From an uncultured Candidatus Saccharibacteria bacterium (GTDB lineage: Bacteria > Patescibacteriota > Saccharimonadia > Saccharimonadales > CAZDQS01), in contig CAZDQS010000001.1 of the NCBI GenBank assembly GCA_964507855.1, positions 230,121-294,120 on the forward strand: 64,000 nucleotides of DNA. Direction: 5' to 3'. Each line of letters opens with the position of its first letter. Within the stretch, counting starts at the first letter, position 1. Positions 7,339-63,614 of this stretch are shown here, piece by piece. The position numbers and the translations under genes were made by a program. The notes under the pieces were generated by a model. It had not been told where the DNA came from and did not search any database. It saw only the letters and a list, made by a program, of their open reading frames with translations.

Positions 7339-7497
7339 TGGAGGGCCCACTGGGATTCGGTCACCTTTGGCGACCCCGGAACTTCACGATTGGCAGCGTA
7401 GCTGCCATCGGAAGATTCCCTTGCGACATGTCACCGGCACGTCTCACCCAGGACACGCGCACGCGTCCTGATTTTGTATCTCGAGTAAGTGCTCCAC
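7339..7497 (-). repeat. Partial tRNA-Lys copy (12 nt + 21 nt exact) split by an 86-nt three-hairpin core (type I module)
   Basis: 7446-7457 and 7339-7359 are identical to tRNA-Lys positions 7552-7563 and 7530-7550. The 86-nt insert at 7360-7445 is homologous to 42316..42434 and 34866..34972. Confidence 0.6.
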
Positions 7498-7529: not shown

Positions 7530-7606
7530 TGGAGGGCCCACTGGGATTCGAACCCAGGACACGTGGCTTAAAAGGCCACTGCTCTAACCAACTGAGCTAT
7601 GGGCCC
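7530..7606 (-). tRNA. tRNA-Lys(UUU), CCA encoded
   Basis: Minus strand GGGCCCA TA GCTC AGTTGGTTA GAGC A GTGGC CTTTTAA GCCAC GTGTC CTGGG TTCGAAT CCCAG TGGGCCC T CCA; clean cloverleaf. Confidence 0.95.
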
Positions 7607-7718
7607 ATGATGAGACAAACCTACGGTTTTTCTCATCGCTCGTCGGCGAAGCCGAGTCGCTGAAGCGACCAAGCTCGCTGCTCTTTTCCCCTTAAGCGAG
7701 CTTCCGAAAACTCCGTAT

Positions 7719-25222: not shown

Positions 25223-25684
25223 ATGACTGGCATAAACCATGTGATGACGGGTGCAGTTATTGCACTGGCAGTAAAGCAACCCGCGGTGGCACTACCCTTG
25301 GCATTCCTTTCTCATTATGCCCTTGACGCCTTACCGCACTTTGGATACGACAGGAGTATTTTTGAGCGCAATAAAAAGAAGCTTTTCTGGACTGTTTTAG
25401 GATTCGATGCCGTTCTTACTGTGGTCGTCATGGGTATTGCATTCTTTCAGGTCTTAACGGGCGAGTTAGCATGGCCGGTACTTGCGGGTATGCTTGCGGC
25501 ATTTGCACCAGACGGGGCATGGATATATAGATTCGCGGTAGAAATTCGCACTAAAAAGTTCGCTCCTCCCAATCGCATTAACGCTTTCCATGCTTGGATC
25601 CAATGGTGTGAGCGGCCCTGGGGACTGGTTGTTGAAATAGTGTGGCTAGTATTAGTGGTCTTTTTCTTCAAACAGCTTGCTTAA
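25223..25684 (+). CDS. YdjM/DUF457-like inner-membrane putative metal hydrolase, copy 1
   Basis: MTGINHVMTGAVIAL..LSHYALDALPHFGY + TM helices; paralog of the next gene. Confidence 0.55.
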   Translation: MTGINHVMTGAVIALAVKQPAVALPLAFLSHYALDALPHFGYDRSIFERNKKKLFWTVLGFDAVLTVVVMGIAFFQVLTGELAWPVLAGMLAAFAPDGAWIYRFAVEIRTKKFAPPNRINAFHAWIQWCERPWGLVVEIVWLVLVVFFFKQLA

Positions 25685-25717
25685 AAGTAAACACGCGCCA
25701 CCTGTTAAACTAAGCAT

Positions 25718-26167
25718 ATGACGACCGCCAACCACATTATTTCGGGCGCAGTCATCGCTGTCGCTATCCAGCAGCCGTTGCTTTCTATACCACTTGCGTA
25801 TGCCTCCCATTTTGTATTGGACGCTATCCCACATTTTGGTTACGAGCAGAAAGGCTACGGGGCGGCACTTCGGCAAAATTTAACATACTTCTGGATGCCA
25901 ATAAGCGTTGCTGGCATGGTTTTTGTGCTGTTTTTGCTAAGAGACCAAGGGTTCTTCGTATGGTTGGCAGGTTTATTAGCTGTTTCGCCAGACCTGCTGT
26001 GGCCGTATCGGTACTTGTTTTACGAAAGGCGAGGCACGGATCCGCCGCCAGCTGGTCCAATTACACAATTTCATCAAAGGATCCAATGGTGTGAGCGGCC
26101 GTGGGGGCTGATTGTCGAGGCTGTCTGGTTCGTCGCGATGCTCGCCATATTGCAAAGGCTAGTATGA
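25718..26167 (+). CDS. YdjM/DUF457-like inner-membrane putative metal hydrolase, copy 2
   Basis: MTTANHIISGAVIAV..ASHFVLDAIPHFGY. Shares a 20-nt exact block atccaatggtgtgagcggcc with copy 1. Confidence 0.55.
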   Translation: MTTANHIISGAVIAVAIQQPLLSIPLAYASHFVLDAIPHFGYEQKGYGAALRQNLTYFWMPISVAGMVFVLFLLRDQGFFVWLAGLLAVSPDLLWPYRYLFYERRGTDPPPAGPITQFHQRIQWCERPWGLIVEAVWFVAMLAILQRLV

Positions 26168-26766
26168 AAATAACTGACATCAAGCAACAGGTTAAAAACC
26201 AGAGTCGATACTCAATTTTTGTTGATGGAAAATATAGCTTTTCTTTGAGCGAGCTGGCGCTTATTAATAGTGGCTTGCATACCGGGCAGGAAGTTACCAA
26301 AGAAGAGCTGGAGAGCCTGAAAGACACGGCCAAGCTTGATAAGGCATACAACCGCGCGTTGGCACTGGTTGCCAGGCGGTCCAGGAGCGAATGGGAGCTG
26401 CGTGATTATCTGAAGCGCAAAGAATATGATGAGCCAATCATCACAGAAATACTTAACAGGTTAAGTAATTATGGTTATGTGGATGACGAAGCATTCGCGC
26501 GTATGTGGGTGGAAAACCGCCGCTTATTAAAATCCACAAGTAAACGTCGGCTGGCACAGGAGTTGCGGCAAAAACGTATCAGTTCTGAAATCATCGATAA
26601 AGTCTTGGCCGAGGATGAGACGGACGAACTGGAGGTCCTGCGCGAGCTTGTAGCCAGCAAGCGCAAACTTCCCCGCTATCAAGACGACCTAAAGCTCATG
26701 CAATACCTCGCCCGCCAGGGATTCTCCTATGACGACATAAAAGCCGTATTGCATGGTCCTGAGTAG
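26164..26766 (+). CDS. recX: RecA regulator RecX
   Basis: ATG at 26164 overlaps the upstream TGA (ATGA). MKITDIKQQVKNQSRYSIFVDGKYSFSLSE.., three-helix repeats, ..LMQYLARQGFSYDDIKAVL. Confidence 0.85.
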   Translation: MKITDIKQQVKNQSRYSIFVDGKYSFSLSELALINSGLHTGQEVTKEELESLKDTAKLDKAYNRALALVARRSRSEWELRDYLKRKEYDEPIITEILNRLSNYGYVDDEAFARMWVENRRLLKSTSKRRLAQELRQKRISSEIIDKVLAEDETDELEVLRELVASKRKLPRYQDDLKLMQYLARQGFSYDDIKAVLHGPE

Positions 26767-26848
26767 GGGAGAGCAGCCGGAGCATCCGGCTTTGCCGGTG
26801 CGCCGCGCGATGAGAGGGGATGTTCCCCTCTCATAAGGCGTAGCCGCC

Positions 26849-26914
26849 CTTATGCAATACCTCGCTCGCCAAGGGTTTTCGTACGACTTGATTAAGCAGG
26901 TGCTTAATGATTAA
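26849..26914 (+). pseudogene. Displaced second copy of the recX 3' end (last 21 codons plus stop)
   Basis: Encodes LMQYLARQGFSYDLIKQVLND*, compared with LMQYLARQGFSYDDIKAVLHGPE* at 26695-26766. Differences are mostly synonymous third-position changes. Confidence 0.7.
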
Positions 26915-26925
26915 ATCCGTTTACA

Positions 26926-27330
26926 ATGACAGAGACTAGTGAGGGCGTGAGACCTGCTGAGCGGTTCGAGATTTCTGATGAAGACCGTGATAGAATTCTG
27001 CGCGATTTAGGGGGCTTTACGCTAGCAATGAGCAGCTTTGAGCGTAGAATAGCCGCCAACTATCCTCAGGGGTTTCTGGGCAAAATCAGACACCCTCGTC
27101 AGCATCGTCATGCTCGCAGGGAAGAGGCATTACTCCGGGTCGCCGGGCTAGACAAAGTGGAGTCCTTGAGCCGGGCGGCTGAACTTGCAGTTAAGGGGCA
27201 AATAGATGTGCATTTCTATGATTCGTTCCTGCGTACTACGAACTGGCCGTGGCTTCAAACATTGGCTCGGAGTTTAGATCCGGCCTTAGAGTCTGCAGCA
27301 CAAACGCAAGAAGAAACGGCGACTCCCTAG
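26926..27330 (+). CDS. Hypothetical protein
   Basis: 134 aa ORF; no recognisable motif. Confidence 0.5.
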   Translation: MTETSEGVRPAERFEISDEDRDRILRDLGGFTLAMSSFERRIAANYPQGFLGKIRHPRQHRHARREEALLRVAGLDKVESLSRAAELAVKGQIDVHFYDSFLRTTNWPWLQTLARSLDPALESAAQTQEETATP

Positions 27331-27893
27331 GTAGCCGGCGCAGCCTCGATTGCCGGGGTGTTCTCGGCTTCCCCGGCTTTAAGCGGCTGGAGGGGATCGT
27401 TGATGACGATTTTCTTGTCGGTTATCTCAACGATTTGGTTTCTGTCGACAGACAGTGATCCGCCGCTAATGCTCTTGAGAAAGGACTGAGCAACGTAGAG
27501 TTTTTGAATGTAAAAGGTGTTCATCTCCACAGCATAGTCATTGACTTTACCAAGCTTCTTTTTGTTAACCGTGACAACCTGCTTGCCAAGCGGGTCGAAG
27601 GCAATTTCAATCGGCTCCTTGAGGCGCACCAGCTCTTCGGGGTCGGACAGGACTTCATAATCATTGACGACAATACCTTGCGGCAGAATGTCGCGGACGT
27701 CTTGCGTTTGGAGGATAAGAGTAGTGTTTTTCTTGAATTTGTCGGCGCAGAACCAGCCCTCAATCTTGAGGTTGTTAGGGTTGATGAGCGGCTGCAAGGC
27801 GGTTGCAACCGGCCCTCCAGTCCGCAGGCTCATGACTGGTCGATCCATGAATGTCTTACTGAGCTGAAGCATACTGCTTGTAGTATAAGCCAT
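27327..27893 (-). CDS. PRC-barrel domain protein (two barrels)
   Basis: 188 aa; ..RPVMSLRTGGPVA.. and ..LGKVNDYAVEMNTFYIQKLYV.. resemble PRC barrels. Confidence 0.5.
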   Translation of the reverse strand: MAYTTSSMLQLSKTFMDRPVMSLRTGGPVATALQPLINPNNLKIEGWFCADKFKKNTTLILQTQDVRDILPQGIVVNDYEVLSDPEELVRLKEPIEIAFDPLGKQVVTVNKKKLGKVNDYAVEMNTFYIQKLYVAQSFLKSISGGSLSVDRNQIVEITDKKIVINDPLQPLKAGEAENTPAIEAAPAT

Positions 27894-34723: not shown

Positions 34724-34842
34724 TAGGAGTCTAATTATATCATATTTACATTTTATATCCACATTACTAACAGAGGTAGCTTTTTGCAAGAAAATACGGT
34801 ATAATTTTCCAGTCGTATCCCTTATTGAAGGGAAAAGAGCAG

Positions 34843-34865
34843 CGGGGATTGGCGCAGTTGGCTAG
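34843..34865 (+). pseudogene. Orphan 5' 23 nt of tRNA-Pro (acceptor 5' strand + D arm)
   Basis: cggggattggcgcagttggctag is identical to 35017-35039. Confidence 0.8.
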
Positions 34866-34972
34866 TGTGAGAACTGCCAGTGGCAGTTCGGAAACGAATC
34901 TTCTCTTGCAAACTTGTTTGCAAAGATGAAGTTCGGGGGTCGCGGAACGTGACCGCGGGTACCGCGCGCAGA
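34866..34972 (+). repeat. Type I three-hairpin module fused to the tRNA-Pro 5' fragment
   Basis: TGTGAGAACTGCCAGTGGCAGTTCGGAAACGAATCTTC[TCTTGCAAA CTTG TTTGCAAAGA]TGAAGTTCGGGGGTCGCGGAACGTGACCGCGGGTACC. Collinear with 42316..42434 and 7360..7445(-). Confidence 0.6.
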
Positions 34973-35016: not shown

Positions 35017-35093
35017 CGGGGATTGGCGCAGTTGGCTAGCGCGCGCGGTTTGGGACCGCGAGGTCGGAGGTTCGAGTCCTCTATCCCCGACCA
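35017..35093 (+). tRNA. tRNA-Pro(UGG), CCA encoded
   Basis: CGGGGAT TG GCGC AGTTGGCTA GCGC G CGCGG TTTGGGA CCGCG AGGTC GGAGG TTCGAGT CCTCT ATCCCCG A CCA. Confidence 0.95.
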
Positions 35094-36751
35094 CGTTCGA
35101 AATTTTTAGATTTAAGGAACTCTGCATAGGGTTCCTTAAGTTTTATATCGACTACTTTCCATCTGGTAATCTTGTTTTTTGGTGGTACAAATTCACCCTC
35201 TACAACAAGGTTCGAGATGAACTTTTCAAGGATTTTATTAAAGACCGTAACGCTCGTTGTTGACCGAAGTAAATCAGCTACATTATCGAATAGTTCGAGA
35301 TACTTTTCGTAAGTAGGTATGACAGTCTTCAAACGTTCTCGTTCAGCTTTAGCAATTTTATGAGCGTTCCTGAGTCTCTTTAGTTCAGCCCTGTAATCTT
35401 TCAGGTCTTCTTTGTAATGCTCTGCCAGCTCCTTATCTTCACCTGATACTATTAGCTTGGCTCTATTGTAATCACGTTGTGTATCTGTAATTTGTTTATT
35501 CAATGAACTGATTATGGAATAAAGCTGTCTAAGTCGAGCTTCTCTACTCTCTGCTACTTCTACGGCATAATTATCATAGTTGCTCTTAGTTGTGAAACGG
35601 TATTTATCTAGGTAGTCGATTGCATAGTCTGTAATCACTTTAGCTCTAGGTCCCTTGTCTTTCATAATACAACCGTCTGTCTCGCACCTATATCGGTAGT
35701 AGTTGACATCTTTCTTAACAGTGATGCCCGAAGATAAGGATTTACCACAAGCCTTACAGAATACTTTTCCAAGCAGAAGGTTGGCTTTTACTTGATCGGA
35801 GGGGGCTGTTATCGATGACTTAAATTTACTCGACATAAAGTCTTTGGCTTGATTGATTTTCAGGAAGTCTTCGGCACCGATTGCAGGTGTAAATCCATAC
35901 TTCTCGATTATATTGACGACACCACCACTGTATCTAATTATTCCTGCATAAGTCGGGTCGCTTAAAATATTGGAAACACTGTCTTTATCCCACTTATATG
36001 CAAAATGACCATCTTGTTTGTATTTGAATACTCTGTAATCACTTCTACCGTTCAAGTAACGCAAAATGTTAGCCTGAGACTTGCCCTCAATACGCATGTC
36101 AAAAGCATGCTTAATAATATTGTAGTTTTCGCCATCAGGGTACAGTTTGCCTTTCTCGGTTTTTAGATACCCGTGCAAAAAGCTACGCAAGAACTTGCCA
36201 CTAAGCGTCTTACGTTTGTTCCCACGAGTAACTACTTCACTCTGGTGTTCTGAAAATTGTTTAGCAAGTACGAAGGACATGCCCAGCAACATCTTACCTG
36301 CTGGATTGTTTTCAAAAGTTGATGTGGCGAAACGTAAATCTTTGATAATACCCTTGTCGAGCAGGTCTATGATTTCGCCAGCTTCTTTCATGTTTCTTGC
36401 AAGCCTGTCGGGGTGATACGAGATTATGCCGTCGTACTTGCCACTAATGACATCATCAAGCATCTTACGAAATAAAGGACGTATATCAGGCTCTTTAGCT
36501 GAACCATCCTCTTTAATAATGTCATTCTCGTCAAGTGATATACCGTCATATCCGACTACTCGTTCTTTACATTCGGCTATCTGGTCTTCTTTAGATTTTG
36601 CTTGCCGAGTTTCGTCAGTCGTTGATTTACGAGCATATAAGACATAGCGCAGGTTTTCTGGTTTGTAGAACTCCTCCTCAGCTTGAGTAGAGGATTGTAG
36701 CATTTCAAAGAGTTGTTCAAGAGGAGTACTGTTTGGTGCTAAGTCTGACAT
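35081..36751 (-). CDS. Large serine recombinase (resolvase catalytic domain + recombinase domain + zinc ribbon + coiled coil)
   Basis: YVLYARKSTTDE (catalytic Ser), ..HPDRLARN.., CKACGKSLS..YYRYRCETDGC zinc ribbon, long C-terminal coiled coil. The last 4 codons and stop lie inside the tRNA-Pro 3' end. Confidence 0.9.
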   Translation of the reverse strand: MSDLAPNSTPLEQLFEMLQSSTQAEEEFYKPENLRYVLYARKSTTDETRQAKSKEDQIAECKERVVGYDGISLDENDIIKEDGSAKEPDIRPLFRKMLDDVISGKYDGIISYHPDRLARNMKEAGEIIDLLDKGIIKDLRFATSTFENNPAGKMLLGMSFVLAKQFSEHQSEVVTRGNKRKTLSGKFLRSFLHGYLKTEKGKLYPDGENYNIIKHAFDMRIEGKSQANILRYLNGRSDYRVFKYKQDGHFAYKWDKDSVSNILSDPTYAGIIRYSGGVVNIIEKYGFTPAIGAEDFLKINQAKDFMSSKFKSSITAPSDQVKANLLLGKVFCKACGKSLSSGITVKKDVNYYRYRCETDGCIMKDKGPRAKVITDYAIDYLDKYRFTTKSNYDNYAVEVAESREARLRQLYSIISSLNKQITDTQRDYNRAKLIVSGEDKELAEHYKEDLKDYRAELKRLRNAHKIAKAERERLKTVIPTYEKYLELFDNVADLLRSTTSVTVFNKILEKFISNLVVEGEFVPPKNKITRWKVVDIKLKEPYAEFLKSKNFERGRG

Positions 36752-40852: not shown

Positions 40853-40928
40853 CGGGGTGTGGCGCAGTTGGTAGCGCGCAGCGTTCGGGACGCTGAGGTC
40901 GTGAGTTCAAGTCTCGCCACCCCGACCA
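40853..40928 (+). tRNA. tRNA-Pro(CGG), CCA encoded
   Basis: CGGGGTG TG GCGC AGTTGGTA GCGC G CAGCG TTCGGGA CGCTG AGGTC GTGAG TTCAAGT CTCGC CACCCCG A CCA. Confidence 0.93.
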
Positions 40929-62857: not shown

Positions 62858-63319
62858 ATGAACTCGCCTACATTGTTTCAGTACTGTCAAAAACTTATAG
62901 TACTTTCAGATGACAAAACAAAAGTTTTATTAGCAAAACGCAAGGGTGAAGCTGATTACGATGGTGTTTACTCATTCATTGGCGGAAAGATGGAAACGAC
63001 AGATGAGACACTTTTGGCAGGTATGAAGCGGGAAAAAGATGAAGAAATCGGCAAAGATGCAAAAATAGCAGTATTGCCCAATGAAACGTACAATCTGCTT
63101 TTTCGCAAAAAAGATGGAAATTGCATGGTCTTACCTCACATTGCTAGTATTTTTGTTTCAGGCGATATTAAACTGAACGAAGAATACAGCGACTACAAGT
63201 GGATTACATTGGACAAACTTGAAGAATTTCAGCCAAAGATCGAAAATATCCCTGAGCTTGCAAAATGGGCTCATAAGAAGCTACAAAACCTAAAGATTGA
63301 TCAGCTGGTACAAATATAA
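62858..63319 (+). CDS. NUDIX hydrolase (low-GC cassette)
   Basis: Nudix box GGKMETTDETLLAGMKREKDEEIG; about 38% GC by eye. Confidence 0.8.
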   Translation: MNSPTLFQYCQKLIVLSDDKTKVLLAKRKGEADYDGVYSFIGGKMETTDETLLAGMKREKDEEIGKDAKIAVLPNETYNLLFRKKDGNCMVLPHIASIFVSGDIKLNEEYSDYKWITLDKLEEFQPKIENIPELAKWAHKKLQNLKIDQLVQI

Positions 63320-63410
63320 CTTCTTGGATTACTCATAAGATTAGTAGAGACTGAATCTACTACAGCCCTCCATACAAAATGCCTCACGATAAGTGGGGCT
63401 TTTTGTATGG

Positions 63411-63553
63411 CAAGACTACAAGCTGGGATTCGAACGGGTTTGCCGGTGGCAAACCCCGGACCCGAAGCCACAAAGTTGCTGGTAGCAAGTTTGCGGTGGA
63501 GTAGGCCAGCACATTTTGTGCTCGGCCCCAGGCGAATCCCATATGGCCCTCCA
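63411..63553 (+). repeat. tRNA-Lys-derived module with an inverted T-arm copy at the 5' end and a direct 3' end copy
   Basis: CTGGGATTCGAAC.. (reverse complement of the T arm) ... hairpins ... GGCGAATCCCATATGGCCCTCCA. Confidence 0.5.
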
Positions 63554-63614
63554 AATTGATTCATTTAAATTATACGAGTTCCCAAAATGGCCCTCCAGGC
63601 ATAAGAACTATGAA

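Follow-up and report, generated by a model that had tools for sequence, protein, structure and literature searches.

The recX gene of an uncultured Candidatus Saccharibacteria bacterium carries its 3' end twice, and the segment between the two copies is a full-length member of a small, conserved, multi-copy module. We examined this locus in a 64,000-nucleotide stretch of the genome (the window), which is that of a soil-type member of Saccharimonadales (Patescibacteria/CPR), and use the name M for the module, a structured segment of about 75-105 nt. The explanation that we favour, with slightly better than even confidence, is that a foreign recX tail together with M was recombined into the resident recX, the resident tail being displaced downstream as a relic.

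Two recX tails and the segment between them

The last 23 codons of recX (copy 1) are followed by an 82-bp spacer with two perfect hairpins and then by a second, out-of-frame recX tail (copy 2), all of which we found where the initial annotation had placed them (Table 1). The copies form direct repeats with a start-to-start distance of 154 bp. The homology between them covers positions 26695-26754 on copy 1 and stops after about codon 20, and the last three recX codons with their stop (GGT CCT GAG TAG) are part of the inserted module M. Relative to recX, copy 2 is shifted to frame +1, a stop codon precedes it by 4 codons, and in the window it keeps all the residues that are conserved in the RecX family. 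A protein search with RecX returned 4233 homologues, nearly all unnamed or ascribed to Saccharibacteria, the nearest at 77% identity. The Logan assemblies of two different runs (SRR7082966 and SRR7082982) are 100% identical to the window across the whole structure, and an assembly artefact or mis-join is ruled out by the agreement of these two independent assemblies.

Among the first 19 codons, 11 differ between the two copies at synonymous sites only and 2 change the amino acid, as had been counted before. Over 21 codons the differences in the window fall as 4/3/13 on the first, second and third codon positions (binomial p=0.0037), and the same third-position bias is found in all three genomes with two tails (4, 3 and 13; 6, 2 and 13; 4, 3 and 13), with 39 of 61 differences at the third position when they are combined (p=1e-6). 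On this pattern both copies were shaped by selection at the protein level, in agreement with the initial annotation. The homologous 57 nt of the recX tail from 77 related species served as the reference for divergence. Over the first 17 nt, copies 1 and 2 are identical at 16 positions, whereas orthologue pairs average 11.0/17 and just 1.6% of the pairs from the 77 species reach 16/17; over the next 40 nt, the copies are identical at 23 positions, compared to an orthologue mean of 25.8/40. Identity between the window copies drops sharply from 94% to 57% after 17 nt, and apart from this block at the left edge the copies are as far apart as the recX tails of different species. Given the third-position bias and a divergence of the between-species level, a duplication followed by decay therefore does not fit. 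Given the signature of protein-level selection, the best reading of the in-frame copy is that of an imported allele by which the resident 3' end was displaced, which supports the displacement originally proposed.

Comparison of 80 species-representative genomes revealed a conserved gene order of pilB (on the minus strand), recA, a variable stretch, recX, a convergent PRC-barrel gene, a second variable stretch, tsaE, tsaB and rny. In most of these genomes the stops of recX and the PRC-barrel gene overlap by 4 nt, which is the empty site. No second recX C-terminus was detected by a motif scan of the 80 loci, and a hidden Markov model (HMM) search then found one in genome L056. Four more close relatives, including the closest (P0002, 77%), are all empty. 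Altogether, the recX site is filled by M in four genomes (the window, L205, L056 and L033) and empty in about 80. In L056, recX ends in LMQYLAGQGFGYDDIKTSLDELGKEQPD and a stop, reading into M, and M is followed by FVQYLARQDFKYEDIKTALGESDNN and a stop. In L205, whose RecX is 71% identical to that of the window, recX ends in LIQYLSRQGFSYDDIKAVLHED and a stop, followed by M of the window subtype and LMQYLSRQGYNYDDIKAAMEEQE with its stop, and the stop of the PRC-barrel gene lies 6 nt later. L033 has M without a relic, with a duplication of TAG/CTAG (3-4 nt) only.

Copy 2 starts with identical L-M-Q-Y-L codons in the window, L205 and L056, and its frame relative to recX, +1 in the window, is 0 in the other two. 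The window and L205 have 17/19 residues in common in copy 1 and 12/19 in copy 2, and the differences between their copy 2 sequences are also biased toward the third position (6, 5 and 15; p=0.009). At none of six genes (recA, rny, recX, the PRC-barrel gene, tsaE and tsaB) are the carriers mutual nearest relatives, and a single ancestral insertion common to a clade was rejected on this ground. These facts do not fit one ancient event after which copy 2 decayed neutrally. Either the events took place independently and fairly recently, or naive alleles overwrite copy 2 from time to time. The comparison of relatives that had been suggested for telling the ancestral allele yielded the empty sites and three further genomes with M.

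From recA to rny, the gene order in the window is recA, three small open reading frames (ORFs), recX, the orphan ORF o134, the PRC-barrel gene, tsaE, tsaB and rny, and type IV pilus genes as well as recA are encoded next to recX. The distance from recX to the PRC-barrel gene, about 560 bp, is taken up by the spacer, copy 2 and o134. The stop of o134 overlaps the stop of the convergent PRC-barrel gene (CTAG), which is the arrangement that recX has in relatives. Among 5.8 billion proteins o134 has no homologue but itself, and it matches no Pfam family; its composition is weakly gene-like, and we treat it as a putative gene. The interval between recA and recX holds two membrane-protein ORFs (153 and 149 aa; 25223-26167, plus strand) that are tandem paralogues with a common 3' stretch of 55 nt that is 80% identical; a single copy occupies this place in only some relatives.

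Table 1. Positions in the window of the recX locus, its module M and the other M copies.
Feature	Position	Strand	Evidence or remark
recX coding sequence, 200 aa	26164..26766	+	ORF list; Pfam RecX_HTH1/2/3
Copy 1, in-frame functional recX 3' end, last 23 codons, LMQYLARQGFSYDDIKAVLHGPE and stop	26695..26766	+
14-nt block ATGCAATACCTCGC, identical in both copies	26698..26711, partner 26852-26865	+	putative crossover site
Module M at recX, about 92 nt with 5' hairpin	26757..26848	+	covariance models, fold
M at recX: 5' hairpin P0	26757-26770
Spacer between copies, 82 bp	26767-26848
M at recX: 5' motif GGGAGAGCAGCC	26767-26778
M at recX: HP1, GCCGGA-GCA-TCCGGC, perfect	26776-26790
M at recX: GCGCGATGAG-HP2-CTCAT, with HP2 GAGAGGGGA-TGT-TCCCCTCTC, perfect	HP2 26812-26832
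M at recX: HP3, third small hairpin GGC-GTA-GCC	26837-26845
Copy 2, displaced recX 3' end, LMQYLARQGFSYDLIKQVLND and stop	26849..26914	+	HMM E=2.6e-11
Orphan ORF o134, 134 aa, between copy 2 and PRC-barrel gene	26926..27330	+
Convergent PRC-barrel gene	27327..27893	-	stop overlaps recX stop by 4 nt in most relatives (empty site)
Second full M copy, 5' leader of tRNA-Lys(ttt) (7530-7606)	7592..7693	-	BLAST/covariance model
Truncated M, 5' motif GGGAAAAGAGCAGC only, fused to 23-nt duplicate of tRNA-Pro 5' end	34827..34843	+

The module M and its genomic contexts

The initial annotation had taken the spacer for the footprint of a larger element of which almost nothing was left. This view did not hold. 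We searched for M by BLAST and with a covariance model built from four copies, and the covariance models R1 and R2 match positions 26759-26852 (E=4e-17 and 2e-13), which makes the spacer a full-length member of the module. Furthermore, L205 and L056 have the same minimal layout, and no recombinase is encoded near recX. Fold z-scores against shuffled sequences are -3.9 for the recX region and -5.6 for a canonical M copy, and both have the same four-hairpin fold. The consensus of M consists of aGGGAAAAGAGCAGCC, the variable hairpin HP1 and then GGCGCGATGAGAAAAACCGTAGGTTTGTCTCAT; optional, common parts are an upstream half-hairpin that pairs with GGGAA and a small 3' hairpin, e.g., GGC-GWA-GCC. 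In an alignment of 75 M sequences, compensatory changes are seen at 10 of the 17 consensus pairs (pair 19-57, for example, is CG in 40 sequences, GC in 19 and AU in 8). The recX/PRC-barrel intergenic region of L033 is homologous to the spacer, with GGGA..GAGCAGCC, GCGCGATGAG and CTCATAAGGCG.A.GCCGC kept and with hairpin stems that differ in sequence from those in the window. The copy at recX belongs to a subtype with a G-rich HP2, together with those of L205, L058, L151, L158 and L179.

Besides the copy at recX, the window holds a second full copy, which leads tRNA-Lys(ttt) downstream of a promoter-like site (TTGACT-17-GATAAT), and a truncated one at tRNA-Pro. Further copies were identified in L056 and, between pilC and a pilin gene, in L058. 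A motif-pattern scan of metagenomes gave at least 120 loci, of which 77 pass a filter for hairpins and motifs, 74 being unique and 70 having enough flank for the analyses below; up to four copies occur within 2.4 kb. The hairpin segment, which had been put forward as a probe for other occurrences, is widely found. We assign the metagenome contigs to Saccharibacteria because rny, recA and tsaE are among the flanking genes. M is conserved across Saccharibacteria and is apparently an undescribed family. In a search of Rfam 15, only tRNAs reach the gathering threshold in the window, and no relevant match is seen near the two M copies at E<=10; a full-text literature search with the M sequence found no paper.

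Several other identities for M were considered and dropped. Resemblances to group II intron domains V/VI, to hammerhead and to signal recognition particle RNAs were abandoned, as the respective Rfam models gave no match. A small ORF encoded in M was rejected, as reading frames are inconsistent between copies and HP1 varies by compensatory changes. A possible enrichment of stop codons at the 5' edge of M was dropped as well (about 40% versus roughly 37% expected, by hand count on the M alignment). A consensus scan of 26767-26848 found neither an intrinsic terminator nor a promoter, and HP1 is followed only by TTTG. A miniature inverted-repeat transposable element (MITE) has in common with M the many dispersed copies (at least 120 metagenome loci) and the occurrence of filled and empty sites among relatives; this class was rejected because the two ends of M, with GGGAAAAGAGCAGCC and GTCTCAT, do not form an inverted repeat and the flank repeats, at 3 to 66 nt, are not of fixed length. 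As a separate observation, the M copy of L058 is bracketed by an inverted repeat (1265-1285 versus 1416-1436, GGCCCCGCTTCGCTTGCCCAT and ATGAGCAAGCGAAGCGTGGCT, 18/21 as counted by eye), and none of this type was seen at other M copies.

The position of M relative to genes is strongly polar. Among the matches listed, a tRNA on the same strand lies 3-11 nt downstream of 21 of the 70 copies and a tRNA on the opposite strand downstream of none (0/70), the downstream long ORF is co-oriented with M in 38 cases versus 17, four copies precede 5S rRNA and five precede 23S rRNA segments, and 24 of the 70 copies start where an ORF on the same strand ends, as M does at recX. Other copies lie between the genes of ribosomal-protein and ATP-synthase operons, and at other loci a Shine-Dalgarno sequence stands at the 3' end of M. 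This strong co-orientation with downstream units suggests an RNA function: judged by its contexts, M would most likely be a leader or spacer module that is transcribed into RNA, and possibly a processing or stabilising signal.

M stands directly before the 5' ends of 23S and 5S rRNA in L088, L139, L109, L144, L174, L099, L112 and L149. The rRNA-operon contig L088 has four M copies in 2.4 kb, and these include copies resembling intervening sequences (IVSs), at internal 23S positions equivalent to the helix-25 and helix-63 regions, in which other bacteria have IVSs. This suggests that 23S rRNA may be fragmented or processed in these Saccharibacteria. In ribosomal-protein operons of L196, L133, L094 and L086, a short upstream ORF reads through M (e.g., MVVSRREKSSQSEKSHFFALRDEKNREVCLITVKEAK and a stop) and terminates in a duplicated TAATG overlap of stop and start, by which translational coupling to the downstream gene seems to be kept.

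Duplication of flanking sequence is a trait of the M family and is not confined to recX. When the 120 nt upstream of M were aligned locally with the 120 nt downstream (score >=12, with positions in the same loci as controls), flanking direct repeats were found at 18.6% of the M copies versus 2.2% of the controls among the matches listed (odds ratio 10, Fisher p=1.3e-7). These repeats are 12-43 nt long and 82-100% identical, and across all loci, with recX included, flank repeats range from 3 to 66 nt. Several of them lie at gene junctions, namely at rplQ/rplM in L196, rplC/rplD in L133 and atpG/atpD in L163, and at the msrA start in L110. In diverged cases the second copy keeps frame and stop (ATRQEP/STRQEP, RMGGK/RLGGK and VLVKGATK/VLVKGAK, each followed by a stop codon). 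Since the duplicate in a compact operon carries the upstream gene end and the downstream ribosome-binding site and start, only insertions that duplicate them would survive.

The initial annotation had likened recX to the tRNA loci of the window, and this analogy holds in part: M leads tRNA-Lys(ttt) and a truncated M precedes a tRNA-Pro fragment, whereas tRNA-Pro holds what looks like a genuine integrated island. A large serine recombinase of 556 aa (35081-36751, minus strand; Resolvase, Recombinase and zinc-ribbon domains) reaches into the tRNA-Pro 3' end and stands at the head of an AT-rich stretch of hypothetical genes with low GC up to about 40.8 kb; tRNA-Pro(tgg) is located at 35017-35093 and tRNA-Pro(cgg) at 40853-40928. 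Two partial tRNAs were also found: the 3' part of a second tRNA-Lys(ttt), split in the T-loop (7339-7470, minus strand), and the 5' part of a second tRNA-Pro (34866-34960, plus strand), each joined to a segment of about 95 nt. The two segments are conserved with respect to each other (GAGA.CTGCC hairpin, then GAATCTTC hairpin GATGAAGTTC.GGGGTCGC..AA.GTGACC) with compensatory changes, and may represent a second family of small structured elements. At 62555-63600 (plus strand), the 3' end of tRNA-Lys(ctt) recurs downstream of the tRNA as at least two degenerate repeats (62785-62807 and 63533-63555) that have a Nudix gene between them. Each of these has an insert at the T-loop position and its own terminator-like hairpin, and the whole looks like a tandem array of old attachment-site scars.

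How the recX arrangement may have arisen

In the explanation that we favour, the DNA would come from a donor that already carries a recX'-M-recX'' cassette. One exchange, on the left, would take place in the long recX homology and the other, on the right, in the short conserved LMQYL block, where the second recX fragment of the cassette provides the homology; with its own right-hand arm the cassette could integrate into any recX, always at the same codon. The imported tail (copy 1) would complete RecX and run into M, which supplies the last codons and the stop, and the resident tail (copy 2), pushed downstream, would be left as a dead relic. Natural transformation followed by homeologous recombination is the most likely route, and natural competence of Saccharibacteria is documented (PMC10633639). 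We infer the direction of import, the crossover site and the transformation/RecA machinery from the arrangement of the locus. Import of a cassette accounts for a synonymously diverged tail that is fused to M and for the intact resident tail right after it, and likewise for the boundary codon that is constant in three genomes, for the switch from 94% to 57% identity and for the patchy distribution among species.

A number of points weigh against this explanation. The donor genome was not found, and the window genome has no close relative, so that the direction of transfer cannot be shown. The right-hand homology amounts to 60-70 nt at about 65% identity with a perfect block of 14 nt, which is well below the usual need of RecA-dependent exchange, and the 14-17-nt block of identity is not seen in L205 and L056 (12/17 each over the same stretch). 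That copy 2 is intact in both the window and L205 requires independent recent events or a refreshing process, and an origin is still needed for the first recX-M-recX' cassette. The function proposed for M derives from its contexts. Finally, o134, which follows copy 2, is an orphan, so that it is not proven which of the flanks is resident.

A close rival to cassette import, which we nevertheless consider improbable, is an insertion of M in situ near the recX 3' end that duplicated its target into identical copies, followed by allele replacement from a diverged, likewise M-carrying lineage with a crossover inside M, or by overwriting of copy 2 from naive alleles. Identical or near-identical flank repeats at other M copies (38/38 in L110, 42/43 in L141 and 19/19 in L196) look like fresh target duplications and speak for it, as do the duplication of only 3-4 nt (TAG/CTAG) in L033 and the fact that M, as the best-conserved stretch of the region, is a good crossover anchor. 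Against it, two events are needed in each of three genomes, and the left edge, 16/17 identical in copies that are otherwise 57% identical, is not accounted for by this process itself. Moreover, no bacterial mechanism is known by which an element that lacks terminal inverted repeats makes target duplications of 3 to 66 nt.

We regard it as unlikely that the structure derives from a site-specific integrative element (phage, integrative and conjugative element, or island) whose attP mimicked the recX 3' end and which was then mostly deleted, leaving attL and attR 82 bp apart. The layout of a restored gene and a displaced end is that of classical 3'-end-replacing integration, the 14-nt identical block of the window could be a core site, and at tRNA-Pro the genome contains an island that encodes a large serine recombinase. 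But the 82 bp are a complete copy of a dispersed conserved module and not a mix of element arms, L205 and L056 have the same minimal structure without element remnants, and a recombinase gene is absent between recA and rny, the only one seen in the window being that at tRNA-Pro, about 8 kb from recX. Elements with a recX 3' fragment at one end, which the initial annotation had suggested looking for, did not turn up: in four scans of viral contigs for the spacer or a recX 3' fragment, the sole matches were one full-length recX relative and chance similarities within coding regions.

Maintenance of copy 2 by selection, for example as a translated peptide of 20 residues that begins with the LMQYL methionine or as part of the region 5' of or in the downstream ORF start, we judge very improbable. 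It would explain the intact frame with all conserved residues in the window and L205 and the third-position bias between these two copy 2 sequences, and the Shine-Dalgarno sequence found at the M 3' end in other loci would suit it. A good ribosome-binding site was not found before the ATG in the window, however, and copy 2 is altered at invariant positions in L056 (G to D, M to V), absent from L033 and variable in its frame relative to recX. A local tandem duplication with neutral decay of the spare copy would give direct repeats 154 bp apart, but it is effectively refuted, as is an assembly artefact, by the concentration of differences at third positions in the window and over three genomes, by copy divergence at the between-species level, by a spacer that belongs to a foreign family and is not copied local sequence, and by the two matching assemblies. 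A diversity-generating retroelement was also considered and rejected, as the mismatches affect all four bases in both copies and are not confined to adenines.

Beyond the recX locus, we tentatively consider a broader possibility, to which we give well under an even chance, namely that M is a non-autonomous mobile module of Patescibacteria, i.e., a structured leader RNA of about 100 nt that spreads with 'prosthetic' copies of gene ends through host competence and recombination and has no recombinase of its own. Each insertion would restore its target, and the relic would become the next homology arm. If M moves with gene-end duplicates, gene-end turnover and mosaicism would have a new route in these naturally competent, ultra-small bacteria, and M would be a practical landmark for spotting recombination in their genomes. 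If M marks RNA processing sites, it bears on the maturation of stable RNAs in reduced genomes.

Relation to known systems

Replacement of gene ends by incoming DNA is known from phages and genomic islands. Phage 21 and e14 integrate into the 3' end of icd in Escherichia coli, ICESt1 and ICESt3 into fda, and many islands into tRNA genes. The e14/icd case is discussed in PMC6379469. As with phage 21, e14 and ICESt1, the DNA arriving at recX would bring the 3' end of its target, the gene stays intact, the resident end is displaced and the differences are mainly synonymous. In contrast to these elements, which have kilobases of DNA, an integrase and a defined core, the recX insert spans about 150 bp between the crossover points, has no recombinase nearby and consists of a non-coding structured module that is found at many unrelated sites.

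Correia elements (Neisseria), BOX/RUP (pneumococcus), REP/BIME and ERIC (enterobacteria) lie between genes and in transcripts and can alter mRNA ends. M is similar to them in being about 100 nt long, non-coding, hairpin-forming, multi-copy and intergenic. It differs in lacking terminal inverted repeats or a fixed short target duplication, in its conservation of sequence across the phylum rather than within a species, in its orientation with downstream tRNAs and rRNA pieces, and in its long, variable gene-end duplicates. Insertion sequences of the IS1634/IS1549 type also produce target duplications of tens of bases and of variable length, but they are autonomous (about 1.6-1.9 kb, with a transposase and inverted ends), whereas M has neither transposase nor inverted ends.

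With the IVSs of 23S rRNA (helix 25, helix 45) and the processing elements of rRNA and tRNA spacers, M has in common its location at 23S positions of the known IVS type and directly 5' of mature stable-RNA ends. Classical IVSs, however, are single extended stem-loops that RNase III cleaves, and they are not known from mRNA operons or from positions after protein genes, where M does occur; processing of M is putative.

In homology-facilitated illegitimate recombination, as in Acinetobacter and pneumococcus, a long homologous anchor is combined with a join at very short microhomology. The exchange proposed for recX resembles it in that one long anchor and a short join would admit foreign DNA into a competent cell. 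Unlike the arbitrary short-join sites of that process, the recX join lies at the same codon in three genomes, which suggests that the cassette carries its own right-hand anchor. Overall, gene-end replacement on insertion is a known phenomenon that here appears to have a new vehicle, a tiny, structured, non-coding multi-copy module without a recombinase that recurs at the same recX codon in unrelated Saccharibacteria.

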